A DNA stretch of 64,000 nt, taken from Bacteroidota bacterium (GTDB lineage Bacteria > Bacteroidota > Bacteroidia > Chitinophagales > Saprospiraceae). Within the stretch, counting starts at the first letter, position 1. Each line of letters begins with the position of its first letter. Of the stretch, positions 10,085 through 29,090 are shown piece by piece. The translations under genes and the position numbers were made by a program. The DNA is taken from assembly GCA_020160935.1 (NCBI GenBank), contig JAIUPL010000013.1, positions 47,710 through 111,709 on the forward strand. Reading direction: 5' to 3'. The notes under the pieces were generated by a model that was not told where the DNA came from, did no database searches, and saw nothing but the letters and a program-made list of their open reading frames with translations.

Positions 10085-11983
10085 CTATCTTGTACTGTCT
10101 TTCGTTTCCAGGCTAAGCCTTATGGTATAGGCTGTCCAATCAGTCTGTTCCAGGTGTTGGCGTTTTGCATCGCTCCGTAAGTAAGGAAAATGAGCAGACA
10201 GACCTTTTTGAACAAAGGGTTCTGTATTTAATTCTCCTGTACAAATTACTACTTTTATATATTCATCCACGGCAGAAAGGTCTGGCAGATCGATACGCAG
10301 TGGGATGGTTCGGTACTGGTAATTTTCAAAAACATCGGTAGCCCAAACTTCTTGCCCTGGTTGCAATTCCTGTTTTGGAAGTAATGCATTACTAATCGCA
10401 AAATTACTGTCGAGGTATAACACCCCGATCCAGTATGGTTGTTGTCCCGTATTGCGAATTTTAAGTTGAAAGCCAGGTCTGGAGCCTCCCGGTGTGTAAC
10501 GGAAAAGGGCAATATCAGTCTGCCAGTCCACCAATTCGACAGGAGCATTGTCTGATTCGTTTCCCGGTTCGGTCACACGATACAATTCAATGGTAATGTC
10601 CGACTCCGGTATTCGGGTGTTGTGGTTTGACAGATTGAGCGTGTGCAGCCAGTTGGCTACTACTTCCAGTTTTTGAAGAAAAAATATGGCTGTTGTTGTA
10701 CCATACCCTTGTATGGGTTCAAAAAATGGCAGATCATGATGTGTTCTGCTCAAAAAGTATGTACCGTTTTTCGCGTGCACGAGACATTCTGCTTGCATAA
10801 CCATGCTACATAATTGAAACAGGTCAGAGCCACGGTTTTCTATTGCTGCTGTCAAAAAGGAAACCCCTTCGGAGTCGCTGCCGGAAGCAAATGCGATGTT
10901 GAGTTTGGGTTTGGCTCTCAGCCGGATTACGGCACCATAAGATCGTTTTGTATCATAGCCCTCCATGCCGCTTACGGCTGAATGATCTGCAAAAACGGTT
11001 TCAACGGTTACCAGGTGCTCGTCTTCCTGCAGTTGCAGCACTGTGGGGTTTCCCGGTTCGGAGGGCGGAATGCCATGCATTGCTCCTGCATGGAGTACCC
11101 AGCCAGCAGAGTGATCCCAGGATACCAGAAATGACGGGTGTTCGGACTCGATCTTACTAAACAAGAAACCCAGGTTTCGATCTTCCTGAAAAGTTGCATC
11201 CAGTTGTGGAGACTGTTGTCGGACTATATTCCGAATTCGTTGGCGAATGCGCTCCAACAGGTTATGATAGGAAATCGACGCGCCGGTATTTTCAAGCGCT
11301 TCTACGAGGCAATAAGTGAAAATCCCGCCCGGCTTGTCTACAATAGTTATTTCTTTGGCCAGTTCGGTATCACGTGCTGCTGCCAGGTGAACCCTACGTC
11401 CCATCGGCGGGCGCAAGGCGCCGTCTTTCATTTTTTTAAAATGGTCGATGCCCAATAATTCAGATGCCGGAACGGCCGGCCCAAACTCACGGATTAAACG
11501 AACCCCGGAGGCTGCATCATCGGCATGACGCATCCTACCCGAATGGCAACAATCCATGGTCGTAACAAAAGGCACATCAATATGCTTGGAAACGCTCCAG
11601 ATGAGGTAGGATAATTCTTTGTCCATAAGGTCATACCCATCGGGCTGCCGGCTGTCCCAGCAAACGATAGATTCCTGATAATGATCTGGTTCGAATTCCC
11701 AGAAGGCTTCCGGAGCAGCACACCGGGAGCCATGGCCGGAGAAATGAAACAAACACGCATCTCCAGCCTGTGCTTGCTGGAAATGATCGAAACCCTCGAT
11801 GATCGCCTGACGCCCGGCCGCCTCATTGGTCAATACGAGCGGATAAAAAACTACTCCCATACGAGTGCAGTACGTGTCCAGAAATTGATACATGCGCTCA
11901 ACATCATTTACACAACCGTTGAGGGCGTGTGCAGGATTGGGATACTGGTCGATGCCAACCAGCAGGGCATATAATGTAGGCAT
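10085..11983 (-). CDS. caspase-fold (peptidase C14-like) protein with a ~370-aa beta-rich C-terminal region
   Basis: N-terminus YALLVGIDQYPNPAHALNGCVNDV, catalytic His in FHFSGHGS, catalytic Cys in TMDCCHSGRM. The C-terminal part (QLKIRNTGQQPYWIGVLYLDSNFAIS) recalls the DUF4384-type domain often attached to caspases; this is recognition from memory. Confidence 0.85.
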   Translation of the reverse strand: MPTLYALLVGIDQYPNPAHALNGCVNDVERMYQFLDTYCTRMGVVFYPLVLTNEAAGRQAIIEGFDHFQQAQAGDACLFHFSGHGSRCAAPEAFWEFEPDHYQESIVCWDSRQPDGYDLMDKELSYLIWSVSKHIDVPFVTTMDCCHSGRMRHADDAASGVRLIREFGPAVPASELLGIDHFKKMKDGALRPPMGRRVHLAAARDTELAKEITIVDKPGGIFTYCLVEALENTGASISYHNLLERIRQRIRNIVRQQSPQLDATFQEDRNLGFLFSKIESEHPSFLVSWDHSAGWVLHAGAMHGIPPSEPGNPTVLQLQEDEHLVTVETVFADHSAVSGMEGYDTKRSYGAVIRLRAKPKLNIAFASGSDSEGVSFLTAAIENRGSDLFQLCSMVMQAECLVHAKNGTYFLSRTHHDLPFFEPIQGYGTTTAIFFLQKLEVVANWLHTLNLSNHNTRIPESDITIELYRVTEPGNESDNAPVELVDWQTDIALFRYTPGGSRPGFQLKIRNTGQQPYWIGVLYLDSNFAISNALLPKQELQPGQEVWATDVFENYQYRTIPLRIDLPDLSAVDEYIKVVICTGELNTEPFVQKGLSAHFPYLRSDAKRQHLEQTDWTAYTIRLSLETKDSTR

Positions 11984-12054
11984 TAATACATATTGTAATT
12001 TTTTGAAAAATATTCTGCAATTTAGCGCTGTGCAAAGTAAGATTGGAATAAAAG

Positions 12055-12129
12055 TATAGGTAGTACTGATTTTTTGGTAGGATGGATACGGGTTTTCAGG
12101 TAGTCAAAATGCGTCTTTTTAGGTAGTTT
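12055..12129. promoter_or_regulatory. four (A)GGTAG(T) direct repeats in the divergent intergenic region
   Basis: GGTAG at 12059, 12076, 12099 and 12122 (spacings 17, 23, 23 nt). Three share the context T-rich + AGGTAGT. The array lies between the caspase gene (-) and the metzincin gene (+). Confidence 0.35.
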
Positions 12130-12179
12130 ATTCACAGACACTGTATATGACTTTTGTCTGTAAAATAATAATAGTAGTT

Positions 12180-12965
12180 ATGAAAAAGAATAAACAAGGA
12201 ACGCCCCCACATGACCCCAAAAATATAGTATCACCTGGCCTGCTTATGGCTGGTGCTGAGAAATCTATTTCAATAACAAGGAGGGAATTTTCGGTAATGA
12301 CACTGGGGGCAATGAGTAGTCTCGCATTGCCAAGTTTATTAAGGAGTCAAATCACGTCGGGGACGGCACAGGCTTCGGGAACCAATAATATCATTCATTA
12401 TTATTTCCATGATTTCGGGAATTTGTCTGTTCTGATACTGGAAAGGGCAGTGAAGATTATGCTTGATAATATTTTTTCACCTTTCATTCTTGAAGAAGCA
12501 TACCGGATTGCCTCCCGTTGGTGTATGCAGGATGGGTATTGGAAAGCCTGTAAAATGAATTTGCAATCGCACTATACCCCCTGGGATCTTTTATCCTATC
12601 AGATCAAAACGCTGTCTGTGCAATCAGTACTACCTGATCTGCATTTTTATGGCATGAATAAAAAAAGTGATATAATGGGGCAAGGAGAACTGGGATGTGT
12701 AAAAATTATTTGGGTAGATCCCAATTGGGTAAGAATCAAAGGTCATTTTAAAGTACAAATTAACCGAAGGCAGTTCATGTATTCGACGGATCCTTTGGAG
12801 TGGGCTGCCGTCATCGTTCATGAAATGCTGCATAATTTAGGACACGCTCATCCGGACAATGATTATAGACTCGATTTTCAAATAATGGCTTTCGAGCAGG
12901 CGATGTATTACAGCGCAGATACTTCGATATACGGCCCGCTTCCTTCCGCCTGGGGTGGGTATTAG
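12180..12965 (+). CDS. Tat-signal metzincin-like zinc metalloprotease
   Basis: Twin-arginine motif ITRREFSVMTLGAMSSLALPSLL and zinc site HEMLHNLGHAHPD (HExxHxxGxxH). ATG 12180 is preferred within ORF 12147..12965. Confidence 0.7.
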   Translation: MKKNKQGTPPHDPKNIVSPGLLMAGAEKSISITRREFSVMTLGAMSSLALPSLLRSQITSGTAQASGTNNIIHYYFHDFGNLSVLILERAVKIMLDNIFSPFILEEAYRIASRWCMQDGYWKACKMNLQSHYTPWDLLSYQIKTLSVQSVLPDLHFYGMNKKSDIMGQGELGCVKIIWVDPNWVRIKGHFKVQINRRQFMYSTDPLEWAAVIVHEMLHNLGHAHPDNDYRLDFQIMAFEQAMYYSADTSIYGPLPSAWGGY

Positions 12966-13127
12966 AAACTGTTTTAAACCCCCTCACCGGCTGCAAAGAC
13001 TTGTCTTTTAAGGCTATATTTCATCCATTGATAAAGGAATAGGCCCCGCTATGCCACCAAAAATGAATCTCATCTATCCTTAAAATTCAAGCCTTTTCGC
13101 CTCGGCAGGGGTTTTAAAACAGTTTCT
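12964..13127. repeat. 164-bp element bounded by ~20-bp inverted repeats (MITE-like or long hairpin)
   Basis: agaaactgttttaaaccccc (12964-12983) pairs with ggggttttaaaacagtttct (13108-13127), complementary except for a 1-nt indel. It starts inside the TAG stop of the metzincin gene and ends 13 nt before ATG 13141. Confidence 0.7.
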
Positions 13128-13140
13128 TAACCTTTTCATC

Positions 13141-15975
13141 ATGGCAAAGTCAATTCGTAATCAACTAACTGCACACTTTCCTGCTAGCCATGCCTTCCTC
13201 GTTGGGGTACAGGATTATAGGTATGTTGCGCCCTTACAGACACCAGTCAATGACATAAAAAGCCTGGCGGAAGTACTTCAAATAGAGGCGCATGGTTTCC
13301 ACGTGCATGAACTGTTGATCAACCCGGAAAAGGAGGCGCTTGAAACTTATTTCGAAACAACCATCCCTGGCATTGTCAAGGAAAACGATCGGGTACTGAT
13401 CTATTTTGCCGGCCACGGAATTGCCATAGACGAAGCGGGGCAAACAGAACCGAAAGGGTTTCTATTACCCGTCGATGCACGCAGGAGCGACGAACATTCC
13501 TTCACTTCCATGGCATTTCTCAATATGTGCCTGCAAAAACTCCCCTGCCGGCATTTACTCCTTTTGCTGGATTGTTGCTTTGCAGGTTCCTTTCAGTGGG
13601 CAGTGGATCAAACAAGAGGTTATGGAAGAGATTCATTCTTCAAGACTATTTATCGGCAACGCTATGAATATTTTCTTCAGGAACCCGCATGGCAGGCAAT
13701 TGCATCATCAGCGTATCATCAACGCGCTTTGGATGTTGCCATCGATTATGCACTCGGGCAACGAGAAAAGGTGGGAGGGGCTCTCAACTCTCCTTTTGCA
13801 GAAACCCTTGTCGTGGCACTCAGAGATGGCGCAGGTGACCGCAGTCCCTCAGACGGTTTGATGACGGTATCCGAAATTTTTGCTTACCTACAGGATCAAT
13901 TGGTTCAGTTTAGTCATCTTCATATTCAAAAGCCGGTATTCTTTCCATTGCGGAATCACAGGCAAGGGGAATTTATTTTTCTCAACCCAAAAGTAAAATT
14001 ACACCTGGCAGATTATTCAGACGACTACAATCCCTACAGGGGTTTAGAGTCTTATGAACACCATCATCGCAATCTTTTCTACGGTAGAGACCGAGTGATT
14101 GAAGATTTAATGGAAGTATTAAACTACAATTCCCTGCTGATTGTCAGCGGTGATTCAGGCGCAGGCAAATCCTCTCTGGTCAGAGCCGGATTGATGCCAG
14201 AATTGGAACTGAGGGGATATCGCTTGCTCCATCCGATTCGCCCTGGTATGCATCCACTTGAGTCACTTGAAACTGCTGTGAAGGAGGCATCGGATAAACC
14301 CAGCGATCTTCCTTCTATTTTACTGGTCGATCAATTAGAAGAACTTGCGTCATCTTATGTTCAGGGTACAGAACGCACAGCATTTTTATCTTTTTTATCT
14401 TCTGAACTGGAACAACAAAGGTTTTTTCAAAAAATCATATTAACGGTTCGTTCCGACTTCGAGACTTTTTTCGAACAGTCGCCACTATCCCCCTACTGGA
14501 ACCGGACAGCCCGTTATCCCATACCCGGCTTTGAGTATGCTGAGTTGGAAGACATCGTATTATGCCCCATGCAAGAGCGATGTATCACATATGAAAAAGA
14601 CCTGACAGCACAGTTGATTCGGGAGGTTCAGAACAAGATCGGTGGATTGCCCTTGCTGTCATTTGCATTATTCGAATTATATGAGTGTTTTAAAGGGAGA
14701 AGGTTGAATGATGAGCACTTTCGTACCATTACGTGGAAAGATTATCAATCCACAGGTGGCGTAGTAGGTGCCCTGGAAAAACGCGCTGACCACATTTACG
14801 AACGTTTCGATGATATACACCGATCCGTTTTCAGGAAAGTCATACTCCGATTGGTGTCCAACGAGAACAGGGAATCTGGAAGACGAGTCCTGGCAGATGA
14901 AATAACCTATCGAAACTCTGAGGAAAATCAATGTGTTTCGCTTATTCTGGAAAGCCTCATTGATGCCCGCCTGCTGGTTACCGGCACCGACTACAGAGGC
15001 GATCGATTTATAGAACCCGCACATGATGCGCTGATACGTAGCTGGAACAGGTTGCGGTTGTGGATTGATGAGTTCAAGGATTACCTTCCATTACGGGATC
15101 AATTGATCGCCAAACTTACGGATTACCGGCAAAGCGGAGGGAAAGAAACCCTCCTGATGCACAACGATCCCAGGCTGGCGCAATTGGAAGACGTTCGAAA
15201 TAGACCGCAATGTTGGTACAATGCCCAAGAGGACGAATATGTACTTCAGAGTATTGCATGGAGGGAGAAGAAAAAGCGGGAGAACCGCAGAATTAGAGCC
15301 TATGTCTTCAGCGGGTTATCTTTTCTGTTATTACTGGCTTGTCTGTTTGGAATACAAAGTTTTATTGCCAATCAGGATTTGAAGGTTAAACAGATTTCTT
15401 TACAGCATGCCAACACTACCATTTTGAATCAACGCGACAGTCTGATACGGCGCGAATATGAAAACAACATCGCCAAAGGCCTGGAAGCGCAAAGCCAAAA
15501 GCGTTTTGTCGATGCGCTCAGTTCATTTCAGGAAGCAATCCAAAGGTGCCAAAACGACTCACTACTACTCGATAGTTTGCCCATAGCCCTTTCCTGTAGA
15601 AGCAGATGTCAGAAGTTGGCAGCAGACGACACCCGCTTTCAGGAATTATCGACCCAGGCAGAATCTTTGATAGCAAAAAACGATGATCGGGATCTGGGAA
15701 CTATTATCGAAATATACCGACAAAGCCTGCAGAAAGAAGTGGATGCCAGTTCAAAGGCAGTAATTGTAGAAAAAATCAGACAACTGGAAACCAGAAGGGA
15801 CCAGGCGTTCACCAAGACGATGGATATCGCTGCCGGAAGGGTACGAATCAACGAACCTTGCAGCGCTTTTTTCCTCTATCAGAAAGCGAATCAGATCAAA
15901 CCCGGGCAATCGGAAGCACTTCAAAAAATGCACGAATTAAAGAGTATGGCATTGAATTGCAAGGAACTTAAATAA
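13141..15975 (+). CDS. caspase-fold protease fused to a STAND P-loop NTPase, one TM helix and a helical/TPR-like tail
   Basis: Caspase dyad YFAGHGI / LLLLDCCFAGSF. STAND preamble NPYRGLESYEHHHRNLFYGRDR, Walker A SGDSGAGKSSLVRAGL, Walker B ILLVDQLEEL (nSTAND1-like pattern). TM AYVFSGLSFLLLLACLFGIQSFI near nt 15296-15366, then ~200 helical aa. Confidence 0.88.
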   Translation: MAKSIRNQLTAHFPASHAFLVGVQDYRYVAPLQTPVNDIKSLAEVLQIEAHGFHVHELLINPEKEALETYFETTIPGIVKENDRVLIYFAGHGIAIDEAGQTEPKGFLLPVDARRSDEHSFTSMAFLNMCLQKLPCRHLLLLLDCCFAGSFQWAVDQTRGYGRDSFFKTIYRQRYEYFLQEPAWQAIASSAYHQRALDVAIDYALGQREKVGGALNSPFAETLVVALRDGAGDRSPSDGLMTVSEIFAYLQDQLVQFSHLHIQKPVFFPLRNHRQGEFIFLNPKVKLHLADYSDDYNPYRGLESYEHHHRNLFYGRDRVIEDLMEVLNYNSLLIVSGDSGAGKSSLVRAGLMPELELRGYRLLHPIRPGMHPLESLETAVKEASDKPSDLPSILLVDQLEELASSYVQGTERTAFLSFLSSELEQQRFFQKIILTVRSDFETFFEQSPLSPYWNRTARYPIPGFEYAELEDIVLCPMQERCITYEKDLTAQLIREVQNKIGGLPLLSFALFELYECFKGRRLNDEHFRTITWKDYQSTGGVVGALEKRADHIYERFDDIHRSVFRKVILRLVSNENRESGRRVLADEITYRNSEENQCVSLILESLIDARLLVTGTDYRGDRFIEPAHDALIRSWNRLRLWIDEFKDYLPLRDQLIAKLTDYRQSGGKETLLMHNDPRLAQLEDVRNRPQCWYNAQEDEYVLQSIAWREKKKRENRRIRAYVFSGLSFLLLLACLFGIQSFIANQDLKVKQISLQHANTTILNQRDSLIRREYENNIAKGLEAQSQKRFVDALSSFQEAIQRCQNDSLLLDSLPIALSCRSRCQKLAADDTRFQELSTQAESLIAKNDDRDLGTIIEIYRQSLQKEVDASSKAVIVEKIRQLETRRDQAFTKTMDIAAGRVRINEPCSAFFLYQKANQIKPGQSEALQKMHELKSMALNCKELK

Positions 15976-15989
15976 CCCATTTATCTGAC

Positions 15990-18900
15990 ATGAAAACAAT
16001 TTGTATTGCCCTTTGCCTCCTGTCCGTAATGTCCGGCGGAAACGTATTGCACGCCCAATGTGCAGAACCCCAGAATAATAACGATGTCTGTTTCAGCCTG
16101 TGTGGCCCCGATAACGAGCCATGCATGTGCCGGTGCATTATGAAACGGGCTTACACACTTCTGGCAAAAGATTCGGTATACGTTGCTTTCAGCCTGTTTG
16201 CTCATGTAGCCGCAGCATGTAATGACCTCAGGGCAGCCGCTGTCATGGACAGCATGGTTCAAAACGTACGAGCCTGGAAATATAACGGCAATAGATATGC
16301 TATTTCAACAATTGAAGGGCGCGAAATCACCCCTTACATCTATACCAATCCAGCCAAGTTTATGTATGGCTATGCAATTGTTGAAGAAGACGGTCGATAT
16401 TATATTGTAGATAAAAACGGGAAAAAAATAAATGCTTCGGAGGCATATAAGAGCATTTTACCTATGGAACATGGCGCTTACTGGCTTACACCTCTGAACA
16501 ACGACGCAAACAGGGAAACGGACAAAATTGCACCGGCCAAGAATCCTTCGAAGATTATTTATAGCCCGAGTCTGGATCAGGCATTTGCAGGTCCGGAAGA
16601 AATGGCGGTATTTACGGACATGATTGCCGACAGTAAGTATGATACCATTTTCGGGCCGTACAATGGTACTGTGATCACCCGATATAAAGGCAAATACGGT
16701 ATTATCGATAAAAAAGGAAAGGAAATTAGCCCACCCAGATACGATGCGGTCGGTGGAGTATTTGATAACAGGCGATCGTGCATGGAAGGAAAAAAATTCG
16801 GGTTTCTGAAAGGAAATGGTTTGCCAGCCATAAAAATGTCATATGATACCGTATTGAATTTCAGCAATGCCCTGGCAGCAGTGCGTAAAGACGGGCTTTG
16901 GACTTACATCGACACCTCCGGAAGGCAAAAAATCACGGAAGTATTTGAAGCAGCGGATTATTTTATATATGGTTTTGCTTGGGTAAAGAAAAACGGCAAA
17001 TGGGGTATGATCAATACAGATGGCGTTTTTGTCGTACCGGCGAAATATGACAATTATCAGCCATGGTTTTATGGCCATTTGGGAGGGAGCATTTCCGACA
17101 GAGCCACTGTAAAAGACTCCACATTCAGCCTTTTCAGGTGGAGAGACAAAGTTGTAACTGTGGAAGGAAATGAAGTTTTTGAATTCCGGGATGGAATTGC
17201 TCTGGTGGCTACGGTAATTGGGTCTTTTTATGAAAATGGCAATCAATATTATTTTATCGATACAACCGGAAAAAGGCTTTTCGGAAAAGTATTCGACGAG
17301 GCGGTTAGTTTCAGTGAAGGCAAGGCTGCCGTATTTATCAACAACGAATGGATGTATATCAATACCAAAGGCGAACCTCTTTTTAAATTAAAACTTGATA
17401 AAAATGGTATTGAACTTGCTATTGCGGGTGAGTTTCATGATAATCGGGTACAAATAAAGCATCATTTACAGTCTACCTTTTTAGACGAGAACGGGGAAAC
17501 AATTATCCCATGGGTCTATTACCAAAACGATATTCGGCAGGGAGATCAAATTTGGATAAAAGAATCTACCCTTGATACTCCCTTCTGGCGATTGTACGAT
17601 TTAAATAGTGGCAAACTGATAATCGATGAAAAATATCAGGAAATAATGCGTGAAAGTGAAGGCTTGACCTGGGTAAAAAGGGACAACAAATGGGGCATCC
17701 TAAATCGACAGGGAGTAGAAGTACTGGAACCAACGTATGACATGCCATTCTATGGTAATTATGACAATTATGACTATTCATTCAAAGGTAGCCTGGCGCT
17801 TGCGCAGGCAGGAAGCGAATGGTGGTTTATTGACCCAGAGGGGAATTCCGTGCTCTCGCAATTATTTAAAATCAACATTGATTCGCCAAGGAACGATAGT
17901 GTAATCCCTTACAATGAAAACGGACTTTACGGATTTAAAAATGGTTACGGGAAGTGGTTGATAAAGCCATCCTTCCACTACCTCGATTTTACTCGCTTCA
18001 ACGATCGGGAACTCGGCATTACGGTTGTTGTAGATAGATTGGGAAAAGTTGGCATCGTTGATTCGCGAGGGCAACTCATCGTAGAACCCAGTTTCAAACA
18101 AATCGGCGATTTCAGGGAGGGTATTGCCATTGTCATCAGCCCGGAAGGGAAGCATGGATACATCCGTTTAGACGGCTCTGTTTTGGTAAACCCGCAATAT
18201 GCATCTGCCACCGATTTCAGCAATGGAGTGGCCTGGGTTTCAGATTTCAACAACAGATGGGCCTTGATAGAAAGTGCTTCAGGAAAAAGAATAACAGAGT
18301 GGAATGAGTATGAATTTGCTCTTGCTTTTAGCGACAGTGTTTCCATCATCCGCGTAAAATACAACTGGAGAATAACGGACCGTAAAGGGAAGATTATGCC
18401 AACCTTACCACTTGACTACGATCAAATACAAGCGTTCAGTGATGGTTATGCAGCAGTCTTGAAAAACGGTCGATGGGGATACATCAACAAACAGGGCGAA
18501 CTGGTTATACCGTGGCAATTTGATGATGCATCTGATTTCAAGGAAGGTATTGCAGTAGTTAAAACATCCTCAAGTCAATTCCGCTTCCTCTGCAAAAACG
18601 GAAAATTTCTTACACAGGTGTCTTATTCTTATGCTACGCCCTTTTTTAAGGGCTATGCAGTCGCTGCTATTACAGAGGCGAATTACGATAAGAAGTTCGG
18701 TATGATTGACCGAAACGGCAAGACTGTCTTTGATTTCATTTATGACAAGATAGAGTTTGTGGGTGATTACATTCTGACTACTGCCGGCTCTAAATGGTCC
18801 ATTTACGATTGTAATCTAAAGGAACTTATTTTACCCGTCATCGACCATTTCATGCCGATTGGGAAAGACATGGTACTCTTAGGATCAAAAGGTAAAATGG

Positions 18901-19148
18901 GAGTGCTCTATGTCAACGAACACAAGATTATCGCTCCCCGCTACGATGACCTTGCGCAAATCAGCGATGCCTATGTAATGGTGCGTCAAAACGGAAAATG
19001 GGGCTGGGTAGACCACAATGATTCAGAAATAATTCCGTGCCGATTTGATGCTGCCACACCTTTCCGCAATCATAAGGCACTGGTATATGTATTCGGCATG
19101 CGCATACAAATCAATGAAAAAGGCGAGATGGCATTTCCTCGCTTCTGA
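15990..19148 (+). CDS. secreted WG-repeat (KWG-type) protein, 1052 aa
   Basis: Signal peptide MKTICIALCLLSVMSGGNVLHAQ. Many ~35-40-aa repeats carry the motifs KWGMINTDG, KWGILNRQG, RWGYINKQG, KWGWVDHND, KYGIIDKKG, KFGMIDRNG and F.EG.A.V. Confidence 0.85.
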   Translation: MKTICIALCLLSVMSGGNVLHAQCAEPQNNNDVCFSLCGPDNEPCMCRCIMKRAYTLLAKDSVYVAFSLFAHVAAACNDLRAAAVMDSMVQNVRAWKYNGNRYAISTIEGREITPYIYTNPAKFMYGYAIVEEDGRYYIVDKNGKKINASEAYKSILPMEHGAYWLTPLNNDANRETDKIAPAKNPSKIIYSPSLDQAFAGPEEMAVFTDMIADSKYDTIFGPYNGTVITRYKGKYGIIDKKGKEISPPRYDAVGGVFDNRRSCMEGKKFGFLKGNGLPAIKMSYDTVLNFSNALAAVRKDGLWTYIDTSGRQKITEVFEAADYFIYGFAWVKKNGKWGMINTDGVFVVPAKYDNYQPWFYGHLGGSISDRATVKDSTFSLFRWRDKVVTVEGNEVFEFRDGIALVATVIGSFYENGNQYYFIDTTGKRLFGKVFDEAVSFSEGKAAVFINNEWMYINTKGEPLFKLKLDKNGIELAIAGEFHDNRVQIKHHLQSTFLDENGETIIPWVYYQNDIRQGDQIWIKESTLDTPFWRLYDLNSGKLIIDEKYQEIMRESEGLTWVKRDNKWGILNRQGVEVLEPTYDMPFYGNYDNYDYSFKGSLALAQAGSEWWFIDPEGNSVLSQLFKINIDSPRNDSVIPYNENGLYGFKNGYGKWLIKPSFHYLDFTRFNDRELGITVVVDRLGKVGIVDSRGQLIVEPSFKQIGDFREGIAIVISPEGKHGYIRLDGSVLVNPQYASATDFSNGVAWVSDFNNRWALIESASGKRITEWNEYEFALAFSDSVSIIRVKYNWRITDRKGKIMPTLPLDYDQIQAFSDGYAAVLKNGRWGYINKQGELVIPWQFDDASDFKEGIAVVKTSSSQFRFLCKNGKFLTQVSYSYATPFFKGYAVAAITEANYDKKFGMIDRNGKTVFDFIYDKIEFVGDYILTTAGSKWSIYDCNLKELILPVIDHFMPIGKDMVLLGSKGKMGVLYVNEHKIIAPRYDDLAQISDAYVMVRQNGKWGWVDHNDSEIIPCRFDAATPFRNHKALVYVFGMRIQINEKGEMAFPRF

Positions 19149-19171
19149 CATAATTATTTATCCCTTTTCGT

Positions 19172-20044
19172 ATGAAGAAGCACCTGATCTCTTTTATACC
19201 GGCCGTACTATGCCCTATATGGGTTGTTTTTGTATGTTTTACTGGCGGGCGCACTATATTCTCCTACCCCAAAAATGCAGCGGATCCTTGCGCATTTAAC
19301 GTTACTAACAACGAGTGGCGCTTAAAACGTGTTTATAAGAATGAGTTGGTATCCGCTGGAGAAAAGGTCAAATCGAATGTTTTTCAGGAACGTTATCCTT
19401 ATTACAAATTTATCAGAATCCTGCTCAACAGAAATGATGTTCCGTGGGAACTCGAATTATACAACAACCTGGAAGGAACAAGCAATCCATCCAGTGCGGT
19501 CGAAATAGATACAAATGCGGAGGAATGGGTTTCTAAAATAGGTTTTGACACCATTAAAAAAGGAGCAAATACTTCCGTCTACGGGAAAAGAAGTGGCTGG
19601 ATTGGTTTTGAATTTTACTTTCCGCTGGATTACTTTTCTCAAATTCTGGATAATCCCAAACATGTGCTGGAATTCAGGAACCTGAGAGACATGTCTGCCC
19701 CGTACAACAAATTCAGATGGAATTCAGCCAGTTTAAGGTTTGAACTCACTGGCCGCGATACAATGTATATAAAAATCGACAAGCAAACCAAAGCATTTCC
19801 GGTATATGTAATCCAGCAAACCTTGCGGGGTAATGGCTCCGAAGAAAACTCCTCATGTAAACAAGTTGTTGAGATCGATCGTACTTACCGGGTATTGGAT
19901 TGCCGGGATGCGCCTTTTATTCTTCAGGCAGAAGAATATTCTGATCAATATTGCGACAACTCTTCTCCTCATACTATATGCCGGTGCCCAAGAGGAAGTA
20001 CAGACTATCGCGCCTCCAAAATCACAGAAATTTTCCCAAGGTAG
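19172..20044 (+). CDS. hypothetical protein with N-terminal signal/anchor
   Basis: ATG lies 23 nt after the WG-repeat stop. Hydrophobic N-terminus LISFIPAVLCPIWVVFVCF. Cys-rich C-terminus. No recognisable domain. Confidence 0.55.
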   Translation: MKKHLISFIPAVLCPIWVVFVCFTGGRTIFSYPKNAADPCAFNVTNNEWRLKRVYKNELVSAGEKVKSNVFQERYPYYKFIRILLNRNDVPWELELYNNLEGTSNPSSAVEIDTNAEEWVSKIGFDTIKKGANTSVYGKRSGWIGFEFYFPLDYFSQILDNPKHVLEFRNLRDMSAPYNKFRWNSASLRFELTGRDTMYIKIDKQTKAFPVYVIQQTLRGNGSEENSSCKQVVEIDRTYRVLDCRDAPFILQAEEYSDQYCDNSSPHTICRCPRGSTDYRASKITEIFPR

Positions 20045-20184
20045 CACTTTCATCTACCAGATTCCCGGTATATCAATTGCTGGTATTTAAGGATTTCCTG
20101 CACGTATGCCTCCCACGAACTTTGCACCAGGGTTCAGCACCCTTGGGAGCCCCAGTCTCCTTTCACTTGTAAAAACTTAATACC

Positions 20185-21321
20185 ATGAGAAAACACTGCA
20201 ACCCTGGCATGATGCCGTTAAAAGCCCTTTTCCTGTCTATATGTTTAGTTCATTGCGATATCGGCGACAAACTCGACCAGGGTATTGACCAGTTTCGCAT
20301 TTTTCGCGAACAATCTATTTTCGAGATCAACAGCGCGTCCAACCGGATATCCAGCGGTATCGGCGACCTGAATTCGACACTGGAAGATCTGGGGCAAAAA
20401 CTGCCACCTGAAATTCACAAAACCCTCAGTTTTGATGTGCCTTTTATCATCGATGCCGTAGCCGGAGAAGGCATCAGTGCCGGCCTTTGCTTCACCGATG
20501 CCGCTACCAGCAAGGCATTGTACCTGCTGGATCTGATGAAGTCAGAGATTATTACAGGCGAGCCGGTGCCTTTGCCCGCTCCTTTTATCTGCCATACGTC
20601 GGTATCGGCCATCAACCTGAACCAGGACAGGAACCAGCGCGATATCCTCGAATTTACAGGTTACAACCTGTTCCTGAATCGTGGTTTTACCGCTTCGCTG
20701 TTCAATGCCGCAGGCGACAGTTTGCCTATCCCTGTAGGTCGACCAACCAATTATCGGGTAGCCGCCAATATCAGCGATCTGGACGACAATACCCTTTCGC
20801 AGTATAAAGAACTCTCGCTTTTCTTTGAAGGCACACCTATTTCTTCCCTGTTTGTTGTGAAAAAACACGAGGTGCCGCCGGTCGTCAAATTTCAGAACCC
20901 GCGCGTGGTTCCAGGTATGATCGCCGCCTATCCATTCAGTTTTTCCGATGACCGCAACTTCAGAGAAGACTGTTTGGTATCCGTATCTATTTCTTTCGGC
21001 AATACCCGGAAAAAAGCCTGGGTCGATATGAACGTTATCGTCGAAGAACTGACAGGTGATGGTAAAACGTATGCTGTCGGTCAATCCGACCGTAACTACT
21101 ACTACACCGCCCCTCCAGGCTGGCATATCAAAAAACTTGACGGCCAGCGCGCTTATGATTATCATTCCTATAAGGATATTACAAACGAGGACGATGTGCG
21201 GTATCCTTTGTTTGGCCAAATCACCATTAAAGCCAAAAACTCCATTGCAGGCGCTACGACGAGTGCGCTCATGAGTTTTGGCCCTAATGTTCCTGATATC
21301 GTACTTGAATCCGGCGACTAA
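20185..21321 (+). CDS. hypothetical lipoprotein-like protein
   Basis: N-terminus MMPLKALFLSICLVHC has a lipobox-like end. The alternative start is ATG 20209. No recognisable domain. Confidence 0.55.
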   Translation: MRKHCNPGMMPLKALFLSICLVHCDIGDKLDQGIDQFRIFREQSIFEINSASNRISSGIGDLNSTLEDLGQKLPPEIHKTLSFDVPFIIDAVAGEGISAGLCFTDAATSKALYLLDLMKSEIITGEPVPLPAPFICHTSVSAINLNQDRNQRDILEFTGYNLFLNRGFTASLFNAAGDSLPIPVGRPTNYRVAANISDLDDNTLSQYKELSLFFEGTPISSLFVVKKHEVPPVVKFQNPRVVPGMIAAYPFSFSDDRNFREDCLVSVSISFGNTRKKAWVDMNVIVEELTGDGKTYAVGQSDRNYYYTAPPGWHIKKLDGQRAYDYHSYKDITNEDDVRYPLFGQITIKAKNSIAGATTSALMSFGPNVPDIVLESGD

Positions 21322-21349
21322 TAAACCTCATCACCAAAAAGCATTGATA

Positions 21350-22249
21350 ATGAGATACTTAGCATTAATCATATTCCTGCTCACGTTCGCAGGAAGCGGG
21401 CTTTCAGCCCAAAAGCGGGATGCAAAACCTGCCTCTCCACAACCTTACAATCAATGGAACCGATTGTACACATTCTCTGTTGCGCCGGGTTCTTTTCTGA
21501 TCAGTACCCTCGATGCAGGCATTGAAAGGCGCATGACAGATCGCGTATCCCTTCTTGTGCAAGGGCGTATCGGCTTCAGAAAAATACAGTTATGGGAATC
21601 GTTGGGAGGAAAATATTTTAATTATGGCGGGAGACTGGAGTACCGCAATTACGCAGGTAGGAGTACAAAACATTCCGGTGGGGGCCTGCAGGGGCCTTAT
21701 TTTGCTTTTGTCATAAAAGCCGGACAGGCATTGGTAAAAGCAACTCTTCAAGAGAAAGACTATACCATGGTATCTTCAAAAAACACAACGCCCGGCATTG
21801 CATTGGGCTGGAAATTTCCAGTGATTCGACGCTTCCCACAGGTCAATCTGGATATCGCCATTGGGGGAGGTTATAAATTCGGCAAGGTAAATGGTCGGTA
21901 TGCAGAAAAGAGCCGTTCCGTCTTTTTTAAGAATCGTGGGGTTGTTCCTTCCTTTGAATTTCGGGTTGGCTACATGCCCGGAAATGCCTTCTGGAATAAC
22001 TCGAAACCAGGTCTGCATACTACCGCAACAGAAATGGCTATTGCTTACCATGATCGTTATTCCCGTAAAAAAAGAAAATCGATCGAAAAAGCACTGCTAC
22101 AACAACACCTTGATCCAGGAAAAGTAGATGGCAAATTCGATGCAGAAACCATCCAGGCTATTCGTACATTTCAAAACAGACATGGAATGGCCGCCGATGG
22201 GAAAGCGGGAAAAGAGACGCTGAAGAAGTTGAAAGTTGCGGCTGATTAG
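21350..22249 (+). CDS. envelope protein: beta-barrel-like N-domain plus C-terminal peptidoglycan-binding domain
   Basis: Signal peptide MRYLALIIFLLTFAGSGLSAQ. C-terminus LDPGKVDGKFDAETIQAIRTFQNRHGMAADGKAGKETLKKL matches the PG_binding_1 pattern. Confidence 0.7.
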   Translation: MRYLALIIFLLTFAGSGLSAQKRDAKPASPQPYNQWNRLYTFSVAPGSFLISTLDAGIERRMTDRVSLLVQGRIGFRKIQLWESLGGKYFNYGGRLEYRNYAGRSTKHSGGGLQGPYFAFVIKAGQALVKATLQEKDYTMVSSKNTTPGIALGWKFPVIRRFPQVNLDIAIGGGYKFGKVNGRYAEKSRSVFFKNRGVVPSFEFRVGYMPGNAFWNNSKPGLHTTATEMAIAYHDRYSRKKRKSIEKALLQQHLDPGKVDGKFDAETIQAIRTFQNRHGMAADGKAGKETLKKLKVAAD

Positions 22250-22303
22250 AAACTCCTCAATGGCTACGTTTCAATGCACATTACTTTTTTGTTCAACTCC
22301 CAT

Positions 22304-22463
22304 AAGTACCAAGACCTAATTAATTGATAAAATTATCGAAGGCGTTTTGAGGCAGGATGAGGCATTTTTTGAAGTAATAGCAGCGCTCTTGTTGAAAAAA
22401 ATAACGTGATCATGCCTCAAAAGACCGAGAAGAATTTTATCAATTAATTAGGTCTTGGTACTT
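22304..22463. mobile_element. 160-bp MITE-like element with perfect 31-bp terminal inverted repeats
   Basis: aagtaccaagacctaattaattgataaaatt (22304-22334) is the exact reverse complement of 22433-22463. A nested inverted repeat ttttgaggca / tgcctcaaaa lies inside. No coding capacity. Confidence 0.65.
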
Positions 22464-22481
22464 AACTACACTTATTTCAAC

Positions 22482-23054
22482 ATGAAAACGGTTTTATTAA
22501 TCACCTTTTTTTTCTTTTTTACTGCCCATATGTGCTTCGCACAAAAAAGGATAGGGCTTTATGCCGGTTCCAATTATTCTTCCATGCGTTTGGATCCGGA
22601 AGAGCCTGTGGTTAAGAAAAAGAGGTTTCTCATCGGTGGCTTCACATCGAAGCAAATAGGAAATGGAATTAATTCGGTTTTTGGCTTAAAGTACATTGAA
22701 AAAGGAGGTAACTTTGACAACATCGACGCAAAACTGAGTTATCTGGAAATGGATTTTGGTATTCAGGTCGGCGCAACTAAAGAAAAAGGTGGCCTGTATT
22801 TAACGGGAGGCTTTACACTGGGGGGGCTTGCAAGTGCAAGGGGAAGAATACCATCCAGTAGTAATCCTATAAAAAAAATATTCCAGGGAGGAGAACTTGG
22901 ATACCGCGGCGGAGCAGGAATACGGATGAAGAATTTCTTCGTCGAAGGGAATTATGCCGCCAGTCTGCTTTCCATTGTACGGGAAGATTTTCCCCTGGAA
23001 GCATTTCATAATGGGTTCCAACTGACAGGTGGATTATCTTTTGCACTGTGGTAA
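22482..23054 (+). CDS. small outer-membrane beta-barrel (porin-family-like) protein
   Basis: Signal peptide MKTVLLITFFFFFTAHMCFAQ, alternating hydrophobic strands, and an aromatic C-terminus GGLSFALW. Confidence 0.65.
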   Translation: MKTVLLITFFFFFTAHMCFAQKRIGLYAGSNYSSMRLDPEEPVVKKKRFLIGGFTSKQIGNGINSVFGLKYIEKGGNFDNIDAKLSYLEMDFGIQVGATKEKGGLYLTGGFTLGGLASARGRIPSSSNPIKKIFQGGELGYRGGAGIRMKNFFVEGNYAASLLSIVREDFPLEAFHNGFQLTGGLSFALW

Positions 23055-23141
23055 ACGAACATTTTGCATATCTCGCAACGGTTACTTGTTTCCATTATTC
23101 GTAAAATACATCTATTCAATTTCCATATAAAAACTTATTCC

Positions 23142-23588
23142 ATGAAATTCTTTCACCCACAAATTCAACTTGTTCGGGAATTAGTACTGGATTCTCCCAG
23201 TATATACTACCTTCATATCGTTACTTTTTGTCCGCGCACCTGCTTCGTAGCAGATGGTTATGAAACGCCCGGTTTCGGCCCCGACAACGAAACGCTGGCA
23301 GAAGGACTATATCAGGTTATCATCCACCTTCGGGAAGATTCGGAATTGCCCGATTTTGACTATATCACGCCCATTGTTCATACGATCAACCTGGGTGGTA
23401 TTGTGTTCCCCGACGACGAAGGCTTCATAGAAGTTCAGGTAAAAGGAGTTGTCACAGAGCCGGATAACAGTGCAGCCAGGACTACAAAACCGCCGAAAAC
23501 GACGACAAAAACCGGCGGAAAAGGAACCGTGAGCACTACCATTGCAGAGGATAAATCGCGCCCGATGGACACAGAAAGTCTTCGATAA
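23142..23588 (+). CDS. hypothetical protein (148 aa) with a Thr/Lys-rich tail
   Basis: ATG 23142 inside ORF 23064..23588. No recognisable domain. Tail is TTKPPKTTTKTGGKGTVSTT. Confidence 0.45.
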   Translation: MKFFHPQIQLVRELVLDSPSIYYLHIVTFCPRTCFVADGYETPGFGPDNETLAEGLYQVIIHLREDSELPDFDYITPIVHTINLGGIVFPDDEGFIEVQVKGVVTEPDNSAARTTKPPKTTTKTGGKGTVSTTIAEDKSRPMDTESLR

Positions 23589-23599
23589 TTTTCCAACCA

Positions 23600-25753
23600 A
23601 TGAAACGTTCTGCCTTTTTTATCTTTTTAGCCTTTTGTTTGTATTCTGGTCCTTTATCGGCGCAGTTAGATAGTTTATCGGCTGCTGAACGTGGAAAATT
23701 GGCCTTGCTTCCCTTCGATACCATGCGGGTAGATTCACTTAATGAATGGGCTTATCATTCGCCATCCGATCAAGCCGAATTATATGCACAAACAGCGCTG
23801 GCTATCGCACAAAAAATAGGCTATCGAGAGGGCATAAGCGACAGTTATGTTCAATTGGGCATAGTTGCTGCCGATGCCGGCAATTATGAAAGTGCGACAC
23901 AATTCTATCGAAGTGCCCTGCATGAGCGGATTGCGTTGAAACGCATAGCAAAAGCAGCCGGTTGCTACAACCAACTCGGGCACCTGCAGCGGCGTCAGGG
24001 CCACTACGAAGAAGCCATAGTGTTGTATCGGCAAGGGCTGGCGCTCATGAAAAACCAGGCGCCCCATATCAATACAGGTTATTTGTATAATAGCCTCGGG
24101 TCGGCATGCCGATTGGCAGGGCAATATGACAACGCAGATACGGCTTTTATGGCTGGGCTCCGCCTGTATACAACCTTGATTGCCAGTATGTTGGGCGAAA
24201 AAAACCTGAATGAATACAAGGAAGGCCTGGCAACGCTGCAATTGAATTCAGGTGCATTTTTGCAGGAAAACCGCTTCGAATACCAACAATCAAAGGAGTT
24301 ATTGCTGAAAAGCCTGGCAGAATTCAGAGCACTGGGCAACCCCCGAAAAGCAGGCAAGTGTTTGCTGTTATTAGGCAACAATGCTTACTATACCGGAAAT
24401 TACGAGGAAGCCGAAACGTATTATGATCAAAGCCTTTCATTGCAGTCATCCATTGAGAAAAAGGACTATTATTCCCTGCTCAAAAACAGGGCACGGGTCT
24501 GGCTCGATCAGCACAAATATGATCGGGCCCGATCTGACTTTCAAGCCGCTCTGGAAGGGTTTTCATCCTTGCATGATACAGCTCAAATGGCCGCTACCCG
24601 ATTTGAACTCGGTAACTTCTATTACGAGCAATCGAGCCTGGATTCGGCAGTATGGCACTATCAACAGGCGCTGAACCTTCAGCCTGAAGACCTCCTGCTA
24701 CAGGGGCGTGTACTATATTTTTTATCGGACGTACTGGATCAGTTGGGGCGCGAACAAGAAGCCGAGGTATATACAAAAACATACCTGCAATTACTAAACA
24801 CACTGAATGATGACCAAACAAGGGGCGCCTTTGAAGAATTGAACCGGTATCAAAAGGAAAAGAACCGAATTCAAATTCGTTTGCTAAAACAAGAAAATGA
24901 TACCACCCGTTTGTATGCAGGGGTAGTTGCTTCTGCTCTGATTATTATAGCGCTTTTCTTTTTTTTCCGAGCCCAACTCAATGCGCAAAAGCGGCGAACG
25001 GCGGAGCAAAAAGCAGAAGTAGCCAGGCAACGGGAAGAACTGGCGAGCAAAGAGCGGGAAATTGCCGTTCAGGAAAAATTTGAACTACTCAATAATAAAA
25101 CACTGGATACGCATTATGCCCGCCTGGAAGGACAGGAGCACATGCAAAAACAAATTGGAAAAGAATTGCACGATGGCCTGGGTACCGTATTGGCCACCGT
25201 AAAAATCAACCTCGCGCCTGTAGATGAAGTCCTCGGGCAACTCACGGATCAACACCGACGACAATTTATGACTGCCAATCGGCTACTGGATCAGGCCTGT
25301 GCAGATGTTCGTCGTATGGCGCACGACCTGGAGTCGGCCGTTCTAATGAAGTTTGGGTTGGAGGCTCAACTCGAAGCACTAAGACAAGCAATTGAAAGCC
25401 CGGGTAAACTTCAAGTCGAATTGTCTTTGTATAAACTCCAGGATCGCCTTCCTTACCACCTTGAATTTAACATTTACCGCATTATTCAGGAATTGGTGAA
25501 GAACGTCATCACGCATGCCCATGCCAGCCATATTACTATCCAGGTAAATCGTTTGGACAATTTGATCAATATACTGGTAGAAGACGATGGCCGAGGTTTC
25601 GACCTGGAAAAAGTTCGTCAGCAACCGGGTGTCGGCATGATCAACCTGGAAGCCCGTGTACATTCGCTGAATGGTAAAACATTTATTGATACCCAGCCCG
25701 GCCGAGGCACAACAGTTTCCATCGACATCCCTGTTTTTCCGGAACCTGCCTGA
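23600..25753 (+). CDS. TPR-repeat sensor histidine kinase (HisKA_3 / NarL-partner class)
   Basis: Signal-like N-terminus, ~350 aa of TPR-like repeats, TM VVASALIIIALFFFF, H-box ELHDGLGTVLATV, ATPase motifs IIQELVKNVITHA, EDDGRGF, GVGMINLEARV. Confidence 0.88.
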   Translation: MKRSAFFIFLAFCLYSGPLSAQLDSLSAAERGKLALLPFDTMRVDSLNEWAYHSPSDQAELYAQTALAIAQKIGYREGISDSYVQLGIVAADAGNYESATQFYRSALHERIALKRIAKAAGCYNQLGHLQRRQGHYEEAIVLYRQGLALMKNQAPHINTGYLYNSLGSACRLAGQYDNADTAFMAGLRLYTTLIASMLGEKNLNEYKEGLATLQLNSGAFLQENRFEYQQSKELLLKSLAEFRALGNPRKAGKCLLLLGNNAYYTGNYEEAETYYDQSLSLQSSIEKKDYYSLLKNRARVWLDQHKYDRARSDFQAALEGFSSLHDTAQMAATRFELGNFYYEQSSLDSAVWHYQQALNLQPEDLLLQGRVLYFLSDVLDQLGREQEAEVYTKTYLQLLNTLNDDQTRGAFEELNRYQKEKNRIQIRLLKQENDTTRLYAGVVASALIIIALFFFFRAQLNAQKRRTAEQKAEVARQREELASKEREIAVQEKFELLNNKTLDTHYARLEGQEHMQKQIGKELHDGLGTVLATVKINLAPVDEVLGQLTDQHRRQFMTANRLLDQACADVRRMAHDLESAVLMKFGLEAQLEALRQAIESPGKLQVELSLYKLQDRLPYHLEFNIYRIIQELVKNVITHAHASHITIQVNRLDNLINILVEDDGRGFDLEKVRQQPGVGMINLEARVHSLNGKTFIDTQPGRGTTVSIDIPVFPEPA

Positions 25754-25787
25754 ATCACATATACATAACTCACGTCATCCCCCTTCC

Positions 25788-26444
25788 ATGAAAAAGATTA
25801 AACTATTACTCGTAGACGATCATCAGATCATCCTGGATGGCATTTCCTCTTTTCTGGAAAAAGAAAACGACTTTGAAATCATGGGATTTGCACTTGATGG
25901 TGAAGGTGCGCTCGATTTTTTAGCCCATCATATGGTGGATGTGGTAGTAATGGATATTAGTATGCCCCACAAAGACGGTATCGAAACAGCCAGAGTAGTA
26001 AGGAAAGAGTTTCCGAATATCAAGATTATTCTACTGACCATGCAGGGCGATGGACAATACATTCTGAATGCGATGAAACTGGGAGTACACGGTTATGTGC
26101 TAAAGGAAAAAAGTAAAGAAATCCTTGTGAGGGCCATCCACTGTGTCCACACTGGTTCTACTTACTGGTCTCCGGATTTGATACCACGCATCGCCAATGC
26201 ACAGTTGATTCACTACGAAGGCCACAACGACGACATCCACCTGACACTTCGTGAAAAGGAGATTATCTGCCTGTTGGTCAAAGAACCTTCACTCACGGCC
26301 AAACAGATGGCCGACAGACTAAATATTGCGGCACTCACTGTAGAAACCCACCTCCGAAATGCCCGGCAGAAACTAAAAATAAGCACAAGCAGAGAACTGA
26401 TGCAATATGCACAGACTAACAACCTGTGCAGCAAACACGTGTAG
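25788..26444 (+). CDS. LuxR/NarL-family response regulator
   Basis: Receiver domain LLLVDDHQIILDG...VVVMDISMPHKDG. C-terminal HTH LTLREKEIICLLVKEPSLTAKQMADRLNIAALTVETHLRNARQKL. Confidence 0.9.
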   Translation: MKKIKLLLVDDHQIILDGISSFLEKENDFEIMGFALDGEGALDFLAHHMVDVVVMDISMPHKDGIETARVVRKEFPNIKIILLTMQGDGQYILNAMKLGVHGYVLKEKSKEILVRAIHCVHTGSTYWSPDLIPRIANAQLIHYEGHNDDIHLTLREKEIICLLVKEPSLTAKQMADRLNIAALTVETHLRNARQKLKISTSRELMQYAQTNNLCSKHV

Positions 26445-26506
26445 AGATTCCACAGGCATTTCTTGCGCTGGGAGTGGATAAAGAATTTTAGTTTACAGAG
26501 CACACA

Positions 26507-28867: not shown

Positions 28868-28892
28868 GGTATTGCTATCTTAGTATAATCCC

Positions 28893-28900
28893 CAAATATA
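28893..28900 (-). promoter_or_regulatory. candidate -7 box (TATATTTG on minus strand) for the protease-tectonin gene
   Basis: caaatata on the plus strand matches TAnnTTTG on the minus strand, 26 nt upstream of ATG 28867. Confidence 0.3.
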
Positions 28901-29022
28901 TAGACTTCAAGATTTTTTTAAACATCCGAAGTTATTCCAGGCTACAGCCTTACCTCACGCCGGCTGCTACAACTGTAGCCACCCCCGACGTCCAAAAAAC
29001 GAAGCGTTCAACATTAATGCGT

Positions 29023-29033: not shown

Positions 29034-29090
29034 GGTGAAGAACACGCCTGCACAGAAATAACACCCGAAACTTGGGGTATCCGCCTCGAA

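Follow-up and report, generated by a model that had tools for sequence, protein, structure and literature searches.

The 64,000-nucleotide (nt) stretch analysed here (contig JAIUPL010000013.1 of a Bacteroidota bacterium of the Saprospiraceae; hereafter the window, in whose numbering all coordinates are given) encodes a caspase-nSTAND1 protein followed by a secreted WG-repeat protein and a small exported protein, ORF4 (open reading frame 4). Comparison with related loci inclines us, on balance, to regard these three as a split, outward-facing caspase-STAND system, in which the C-terminal tail of the STAND protein, the WG protein and ORF4 would form a periplasmic sensing module, with the two envelope genes that follow, ORF5 and ORF6, making up a separate cassette.

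The five genes lie on the + strand at 13141-15975 (caspase-nSTAND1, 944 amino acids, aa), 15990-19148 (WG protein, 1052 aa), 19172-20044 (ORF4, 290 aa), 20185-21321 (ORF5, 378 aa) and 21350-22249 (ORF6, 299 aa), with intergenic gaps of 14, 23, 140 and 28 nt in that order. The products of the last four begin, according to a hydropathy reading, with one or more basic residues followed by a hydrophobic stretch, and the coordinates, strand, gaps and hydropathy bear out an initial annotation of this DNA, which described four co-oriented genes with export signals lying 3' of the caspase-STAND gene. In the comparisons below, the names of loci (L001-L176) and of proteins (P0015 and the like) are labels within this analysis, and all open reading frames (ORFs) of the relatives' loci were considered, since antisense ORFs mislead greedy gene calling.

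Architecture and topology of the caspase-nSTAND1 protein

The 944-aa protein combines, by Pfam, a caspase at aa 17-257 (Peptidase_C14, PF00656, E 2.9e-14, 53.7 bits against a cut-off of 21.4) with an nSTAND1 nucleoside triphosphatase (NTPase) at aa 298-668 (PF20703, E 9.3e-82, 276 bits against a cut-off of 27.1), followed by a single, strongly hydrophobic transmembrane (TM) helix at aa ~718-738 (nt 15292-15354) and a helical, Cys-containing C-terminal tail of 206 aa (nt 15355-15972). Both the catalytic residues, His92 (YFAGHG) and Cys145/146 (LDCCFAG), and the Walker A (GxxGxGKS) and DQxEE motifs of the NTPase are invariant across the alignment of homologues (A1). No fused WD40, WG or TPR array was found in the protein, the repeats being encoded by the next gene.

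An EACC1-caspase two-gene system was considered for this locus and rejected, given that the NCBIfam model caspase_w_EACC1 scored 65.3 bits against a cut-off of 140 (the EACC1 model itself was not searched directly) and that the 272-aa gene on the 5' side is metzincin-like, and not one for a small single-TM protein.

The TM helix is found at about the same place in 91 of the 120 best STAND homologues, including forms of 1400-1600 aa with fused WD40 repeats. A census of ~170 loci, taken from GTDB genomes and from metagenomes, provided 159 complete nSTAND1 genes; the metagenome loci were gathered using a second alignment (A2) as the query, and a metagenome scan using the single STAND protein found nothing. 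At least three fused WD40 repeats are present in 95 of the 159, a TM helix after the NTPase in 114, and 28 are short, TM-tailed forms. In the helix-bearing proteins, the mean number of Lys and Arg residues is 5.81 in the 15 positions before the helix and 2.35 after it, and the bias places the inside before the helix in 111 of the 114, with none reversed (p 4e-20, positive-inside rule). Because of this charge bias, the caspase-NTPase part can be assigned to the cytoplasm and the part after the helix to the extracytoplasmic side. The window protein is predicted to be a single-pass membrane protein of this kind, with the caspase and NTPase in the cytoplasm and the 206-aa tail outside. The Cys residues of the tail stand, by eye, at positions that match those of the tail in L172, which fits an oxidising compartment.

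Fused and separate repeat proteins

In most of the STAND relatives, the repeat array is fused to the protein as WD40 repeats that follow the TM helix. A separate secreted protein bears the repeats in 11 STAND-partner pairs, which come from 10 Bacteroidota loci; this protein is encoded by the next gene downstream at a distance of -20 to +34 nt and carries WD40 repeats in eight pairs and WG repeats in three (the window, L172 and L056). A gene for a signal-peptide repeat protein stands immediately 3' of 8 of the 28 short-tailed STAND genes in the census and of none of the 95 fused ones (Fisher p 3e-6), with three further split pairs (L056b, L108 and L172) beyond these eight. This complementarity of fused and split forms is the pattern to be expected if the sensor had been split off by gene fission.

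The closest relatives of the window STAND protein, P0015-P0018, are 47-55% identical to it and have ~900 aa, the same helix and a short tail. Next on the 3' side of each of their genes, at -4 to +34 nt, come one or two genes whose products are large secreted WD40 proteins. From the N-terminus on, these partners have a signal peptide, a TPR-like hairpin bounded by Cys residues (C-x3-L-x2-EG...Y-x2-AI-x-KY-x-AAL-x-C), a coiled coil and WD40 propellers. The layout of a STAND gene with a secreted partner is repeated in L026, L085, L056 and L108. In L172, the WG gene (P0135) and the 3' end of a 963-aa caspase-nSTAND1 gene overlap by 4 nt, and L056 presents a CHAT protease gene, a caspase-less and very divergent nSTAND1 gene with helix and tail, and a WG gene, separated by gaps of 3 and 8 nt, in a WG-type set that adjoins a WD40-type pair. 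Finally, a 63-aa gene in L008 (15691-15882) has no more of a WD40 partner than its signal peptide and hairpin, and is the truncated remnant of a second sensor gene, a sign that the sensor slot undergoes turnover.

The WG-repeat protein and ORF4

The secreted WG protein of the window starts with a signal peptide at aa 1-22 (MKTICIALCLLSVMSGGNVLHAQ, with C next), which is followed by an N-terminal module with a Cys-rich motif and a TPR-like hairpin (aa ~23-100). The WG repeats number ~22 over aa 103-1036 when counted with an iterated hidden Markov model (HMM) of our own, and 13 stretches are matched by Pfam (WG_beta_rep, PF14903, E 4.2e-93), so that the earlier description of a WG-repeat protein is amended to one of ~22 repeats behind a Cys-rich helical module. 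A PDB sequence search with the protein gave no match, and neither this search nor the literature provided a function or a solved structure for WG repeats.

The orthologue P0135 in L172 is 39-40% identical to the window protein (39% by BLASTP), and the first 200 aa of the latter align with the WG protein of L056 (E 3e-17). Among the top 150 WG proteins drawn from a library of 1.8 billion proteins, an HMM of the hairpin, trained mostly on WD40 partners, matches the N-terminus of 13 (best E 4e-11), and a signal peptide with a Cys-rich motif and/or hairpin is found in ~19. As judged by these matches, the N-terminal hairpin module is common to the WD40 and WG types of partner. Two other proteins, P0140 and P0199, have 9-12 WG repeats between a signal peptide and a C-terminal Peptidase_C14 domain, and are thus WG-caspase fusions that appear to be exported.

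The gene that follows, ORF4, encodes a protein that is exported or membrane-anchored, given its hydrophobic region at residues 5-23 (hydropathy) and the typical cleavable signal of its homologue in L172. An ORF of 290 codons in DNA with 43% GC is far beyond chance. No Pfam domains were found in ORF4, a word-indexed search with it returned only ORF4 itself, and its single-sequence AlphaFold2 (AF2) model was unusable (pLDDT 36.6). Its apparent status as an orphan was overturned by direct comparison with L172, where the 279-aa gene located 11 nt after the WG gene is 30% identical to ORF4 over the full length (E 1.6e-36), with a conserved C-terminus (CRCPRGSTxYRA...EIFP). ORF4 had been given no specific role in the initial annotation, and its membership beside the STAND and WG genes is borne out by this homologue directly after a WG gene; the comparison supports ORF4 as a co-conserved third member of the WG-type cassette.

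Co-variation of the tail with the type of partner

The cytoplasmic part of the window STAND protein is 57% identical to those of the WD40-type loci L007 and L008 and 49% identical to that of the WG-type L172, and the cytoplasmic part of the L172 protein is, likewise, closer to the WD40-type L007/L008 than to the WG-type window. The tails have the opposite pattern: the window tail aligns with that of L172 over 200 aa at 44.5% identity (E 1e-58), does not match the WD40-type tails (E > 0.04), and the L172 tail also matches that of the very divergent L056b NTPase (E 1e-4). Given these opposite patterns, the tail type follows the type of partner and not the NTPase phylogeny, a co-variation which is read here as that of a cognate interaction module, and the tail would serve as such a module for its partner. 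The initial annotation had proposed that the WG protein acts outside the cytoplasm as a detached partner, of the sensor type, to the TM-tailed STAND protein, and this proposal is supported by the complementarity of fused and split forms, the three WG adjacencies and the co-variation of the tail.

A hairpin module shared by the STAND tails and the N-termini of the partners was also considered; it is TPR-like and Cys-bounded by eye, was not significant with either HMM, and is kept only as a possible similarity.

Another way to account for the adjacency is mere synteny, whereby the WG protein and ORF4 would be ordinary secreted proteins of the binding or adhesin type, uncoupled from the STAND protein and simply encoded in a shared Saprospiraceae neighbourhood. 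WG proteins abound, with 52,752 representative clusters, the hairpin-WG proteins of L175 and L176 are encoded away from STAND genes, and the flanking genes are common to the window, L172, L007 and L008, so that part of the adjacency is vertical synteny. L056 is, however, a different locus with another effector (CHAT) and a very divergent nSTAND1, and still has a WG gene 8 nt downstream, and synteny would explain neither why secreted repeat partners follow repeat-less STAND genes only (the 8/28 and 0/95 above) nor why the types of tail and partner vary together, at odds with the NTPase phylogeny. We thus consider this account fairly unlikely.

ORF5 and ORF6 as a separate envelope cassette

ORF5 is lipoprotein-like, and its Cys24, which is invariant in 12 homologues, fits such an assignment. 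Precomputed Pfam lists PF26770/DUF8251 for the exact ORF5 protein and for most of its homologues, as a match that is marked weak in the context tables, and the statement in the initial annotation that three of the exported proteins have no recognisable domain is out of date for ORF5. The Pfam set scanned here, which does not include that model, gave no match for ORF5. The AF2 model (pLDDT 78.6) has an N-terminal helical bundle and two immunoglobulin (Ig)-like beta-sandwiches, for which Foldseek returned generic Ig/FN3 matches only.

Bacteroidota operons of cholesterol-dependent cytolysin-like (CDCL) toxins encode a surface lipoprotein, a CDCL pair and a porin (PMC11169675). ORF5 and ORF6, and these two genes only, resemble such operons in the adjacency of a lipoprotein and an outer membrane (OM) barrel, and DUF8251 is also present on a Thiol_cytolysin protein in L090. 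In contrast with the CDCL toxins, ORF5 lacks the CDC/MACPF core, with no match to either fold by Pfam or by Foldseek of the AF2 model. ORF5 as a toxin of the CDCL type was thus ruled out by its fold and by a BLAST similarity to the L090 CDCL protein that is marginal (E 0.012). The L090 protein in question (10100-11782, 560 aa) carries Thiol_cytolysin and a C-terminal DUF8251 (precomputed Pfam) and is encoded two genes 3' of a pair formed by a DUF8251 gene and a peptidoglycan-binding gene. DUF8251 may be a beta-sandwich binding domain held in common with CDC-like toxins. An antisense ORF of 225 aa (20542-21219, - strand) lies inside ORF5, with similar long ones in L001 and L008, and is almost certainly non-coding.

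ORF6 has a small OM-barrel-like region and a C-terminal PG_binding_1 domain (E 5.5e-14, 52.5 bits against a cut-off of 23), with the DUF3575 barrel at 17.8 bits, below the cut-off of 21.1. Its start is placed at ATG 21350, from which the homologues align, rather than at TTG 21278, where the longest ORF begins, and its signal ends in ...GSGLSAQ, with K next.

ORF6 homologues are always found directly 3' of a DUF8251 gene, and the pair is intact in all seven contexts (the window, L008, L001, L004, L005, L090 and L092). In five of these there is no STAND gene. The pair adjoins type VI secretion system (T6SS) genes in L005 and, in L001, T6SS genes together with an M4 protease and AAA_21/RloB, not far from a caspase-FGE gene; it follows an M10-like gene in L004 and a trypsin gene in L090, here near CHAT and CDC-like genes, and precedes a SprB-repeat (PF13573) gene in L092. 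In L008, the pair is upstream of the STAND gene, not downstream. The orthologous WG-type locus, L172, contains no DUF8251 or PG-binding gene; a block of genes denoted TPR812-417-336 takes the place of ORF5 and ORF6 there, and the same block follows the WD40 genes in L006.

These contexts bear on the original proposal of a unit of five genes, in which the STAND, WG, ORF4, ORF5 and ORF6 proteins would work together, with ORF6 as the wall anchor of the WG sensor and with a signal that passes inward. All five genes are co-oriented with short gaps, the DUF8251 and PG-binding pair again abuts a caspase-STAND gene in L008/L010 (82-111 nt upstream), and in L001 and L090, as well, the pair has a caspase or CHAT gene no more than 5 kb away. 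Against this, L172 retains the other genes without the pair, the pair is found without a STAND gene in L001, L004, L005, L090 and L092, its position relative to the STAND gene varies, and the gap between ORF4 and ORF5 is the 140-nt one. The unit of five genes is, for these reasons, highly improbable, and conservation around STAND homologues extends to the WG gene and ORF4 (in L172) and not to ORF5 and ORF6, which do not hold their place in the STAND unit. Their absence from L172 and the five contexts without STAND genes point to an independent envelope cassette, which we conclude from these gene orders was probably inserted where the gene order varies, after the STAND cassette and before the conserved flank of ORF7, ORF8 and a histidine kinase. 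These neighbouring envelope genes should not, then, be lumped into the STAND system.

A further group of genes, of 261-379 aa, forms a conserved secreted family in L001, L005, L006 and L008, where it is paired with Por_Secre_tail metalloproteases of the type IX secretion system (T9SS). This family is shuffled among Saprospiraceae islands, beside either the DUF8251 pair or a caspase-STAND gene.

Proposed mechanism

In the split, outward-facing system, the WG protein, together with ORF4, would dock on the periplasmic tail of the STAND protein, possibly by way of the N-terminus of the WG protein. The binding or loss of an extracytoplasmic ligand would then change the complex of WG protein, ORF4 and tail, and this change would be passed through the TM helix to the cytoplasm, where the NTPase may oligomerise and render the caspase active. 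The caspase would cut cytoplasmic targets, possibly jointly with the second caspase encoded divergently nearby, with growth arrest or death as the likely outcome. The docking, the ligand and the downstream target are the parts of this mechanism that we infer. More tentatively, the tail, the WG protein and ORF4 may constitute a periplasmic receptor complex that relays a danger signal from outside the cytoplasm (contact with a phage, a toxin, or cues from the envelope or from kin) to the cytoplasmic caspase, with a head that could be exchanged between WD40 and WG by means of a matching adaptor of tail and hairpin.

A guard or inhibitor arrangement would reverse the sign of this relay: the secreted repeat protein would silence the STAND tail, and an attacker (phage, toxin or protease) that degraded or displaced the repeat protein would set off the caspase, or else this protein would be a scaffold for localisation in the envelope. 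This alternative draws on the same comparative evidence as the sensing module, and secreted proteases are encoded nearby, such as the metzincin with a twin-arginine translocation (Tat) signal in the window (12147-12965) and the T9SS metalloproteases in L001, L006 and L008. Nothing in that evidence separates activation by release from activation by binding, and the repeats of the fused relatives could not be freed without proteolysis; we consider the arrangement distinctly unlikely.

The evidence for the split sensor is purely comparative, and several points weigh against it. Signal peptides and TM helices were called from hydropathy alone, and the docking of the WG N-terminus on the tail is itself a deduction. 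Only three WG-type loci are known, and ~19 short-tailed STAND proteins have no detectable secreted partner. The hairpin HMM gave no significant score for the N-terminus of the window's own WG protein, which is too divergent, so that its link to the hairpin family runs via the L056 WG protein, P0135 and related proteins, and gave none for the STAND tails; the hairpin-bearing WG proteins of L175 and L176, in turn, do not adjoin a STAND gene. The tail, the WG gene and ORF4 are contiguous DNA, and linkage alone could explain their joint inheritance. With regard to the boundary of the system, the DUF8251 pair has, in four of its seven contexts, a caspase or CHAT gene within 5 kb, and a loose tie of the pair to protease or conflict islands is thus possible.

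Relationship to known systems

Proteins of the conflict systems that combine caspase, nSTAND1 (PF20703) and WD40 are known (Kaur et al. 2021, PMC8195603), and transmembrane STAND ATPases have been listed as protease-linked sensors (bioRxiv 10.1101/2025.11.14.688446). The window system shares with the caspase-nSTAND1-WD40 proteins an N-terminal caspase with an intact His/Cys dyad, the nSTAND1 domain, the single TM helix after the NTPase and, as the presumed sensor, repeats that form superstructures. It differs from them in that its repeats are unfused and belong to a separate signal-peptide protein with a Cys-bounded hairpin of its own, that these repeats are WG, and that the small exported ORF4 is co-conserved.

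The antiviral STAND/Avs proteins and the Apaf-1-type apoptosome present a similar logic of sensor repeats, NTP-dependent oligomerisation and activation of a protease effector. The characterised Avs sensors are cytoplasmic and fused, whereas the window sensor is predicted to face the periplasm as a separate polypeptide, and no phage trigger is known for the window system.

The coupling of components through effector-associated domains (EADs) in conflict systems of the Aravind type (PMC7159879) offers another parallel, given that polypeptides from adjacent genes are proposed to assemble via small helical adaptor modules in both cases. EADs couple cytoplasmic effectors to the NTPase, whereas the candidate adaptor of the window (the Cys-bounded TPR-like hairpin plus the tail) would couple the sensor, and would do so in the periplasm. 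In the literature, we found no description of a split STAND with a secreted sensor subunit, of an exchange of WD40 for WG, or of the co-variation of tail and sensor.

To our knowledge, the characterised bacterial STAND/NLR-like immune proteins sense intracellular targets via a fused sensor. The present comparison suggests that a large caspase-nSTAND1 clade is outward-looking through a membrane helix and that, in some Bacteroidota, the sensor is now a separate secreted subunit, which may be swapped (WD40 or WG) along with the matching periplasmic tail. If true, this would represent a modular "outside-in" branch of bacterial NLR-like immunity. The locus also provides a three-gene system for asking how a periplasmic event reaches a cytoplasmic NTPase and protease, and a first functional context for the widespread WG repeat, which would become its first functional role should the receptor reading be true.

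Second caspase, metzincin-like gene and conserved flank

The second caspase (10085-11983, - strand, 632 aa) is encoded divergently from the STAND gene and comprises a Peptidase_C14 domain (E 3.9e-19), with intact FSGHG and DCCHSG motifs, and a conserved region of ~330 aa. Homologues of this non-caspase region were found in 47 of the caspase-nSTAND1 loci sampled, and most of those listed are encoded upstream of a caspase-nSTAND1(-WD40) gene, co-oriented with it and within ~400 nt. They occur across Cyanobacteria, Chloroflexota and others, and L172 has a homologous 552-aa gene, placed divergently. This recurrent proximity points to a conserved two-caspase arrangement, and on these gene neighbourhoods the second caspase likely belongs to the same system as the STAND protein. 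Long forms carry, in addition, a DUF7379 alpha/beta-hydrolase, and recall the protease-activated hydrolase effectors of 10.1101/2025.11.14.688446.

Between the two caspase genes, a metzincin-like protein of 272 aa (12147-12965, + strand) has the motif HEMLHNLGHAH and a Tat-type signal (TRREFS); translation of this protein probably begins at an internal Met (~12243). In L007, a homologue with 57% identity precedes the STAND gene by 44 nt, and the 255-aa gene that occupies this place in L172 has no detectable relation to the window gene, so that the membership of this gene in the system is uncertain.

Downstream of ORF6, the flank at 22482-26444, which the window has in common with L172, L007 and L008, consists of ORF7, ORF8 (174 aa), a TPR-HisKA_3 kinase and a LuxR/GerE regulator. 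ORF7 (22482-23054, + strand) is an exported OM beta-barrel-like protein that is 52% identical to the product of a 210-aa gene in L172, itself a weak match to OMP_b-brl; the count of four exported proteins after the STAND gene is correct as far as it goes, with ORF7 following as a fifth. ORF8, the TPR-histidine kinase and the LuxR regulator are conserved in L007, L008 and L172, the last of which retains the second caspase, STAND, WG, ORF4, ORF7, ORF8 and the TPR-histidine kinase. The ORF of the LuxR/GerE regulator overlaps that of the kinase; translation of the regulator probably begins further in, at MKKIKLLLVDD (~25788).

Other features of the window

The block at 12001-30000 has a G+C content of 0.43-0.48, compared with 0.47-0.57 elsewhere in the window, and may represent an island that was acquired horizontally or that evolves fast. 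The whole window was scanned with Rfam and for tRNA genes, without a match. Scans for promoters (including the Bacteroidetes -7 motif TAnnTTTG) and terminators remained at the chance level, and thus say nothing on co-transcription. A PADLOC scan of the window returned only the generic "caspase" model and sub-threshold matches, with none for the WG protein or ORF4-ORF8.

Just 5' of the caspase genes, a type I restriction R subunit is encoded at 6642-10049 (+ strand; ResIII, HSDR_N and EcoEI_R_C by Pfam, with an N-terminal DUF4145), in a setting that resembles a defence-island neighbourhood. On the opposite strand, further downstream, there is a 786-aa propeller protein with tectonin repeats (26507-28867, - strand) and a giant surface protein of 3645 aa with Calx-beta/GEVED domains (40361-51298, - strand), both of which have T9SS cargo encoded close by.

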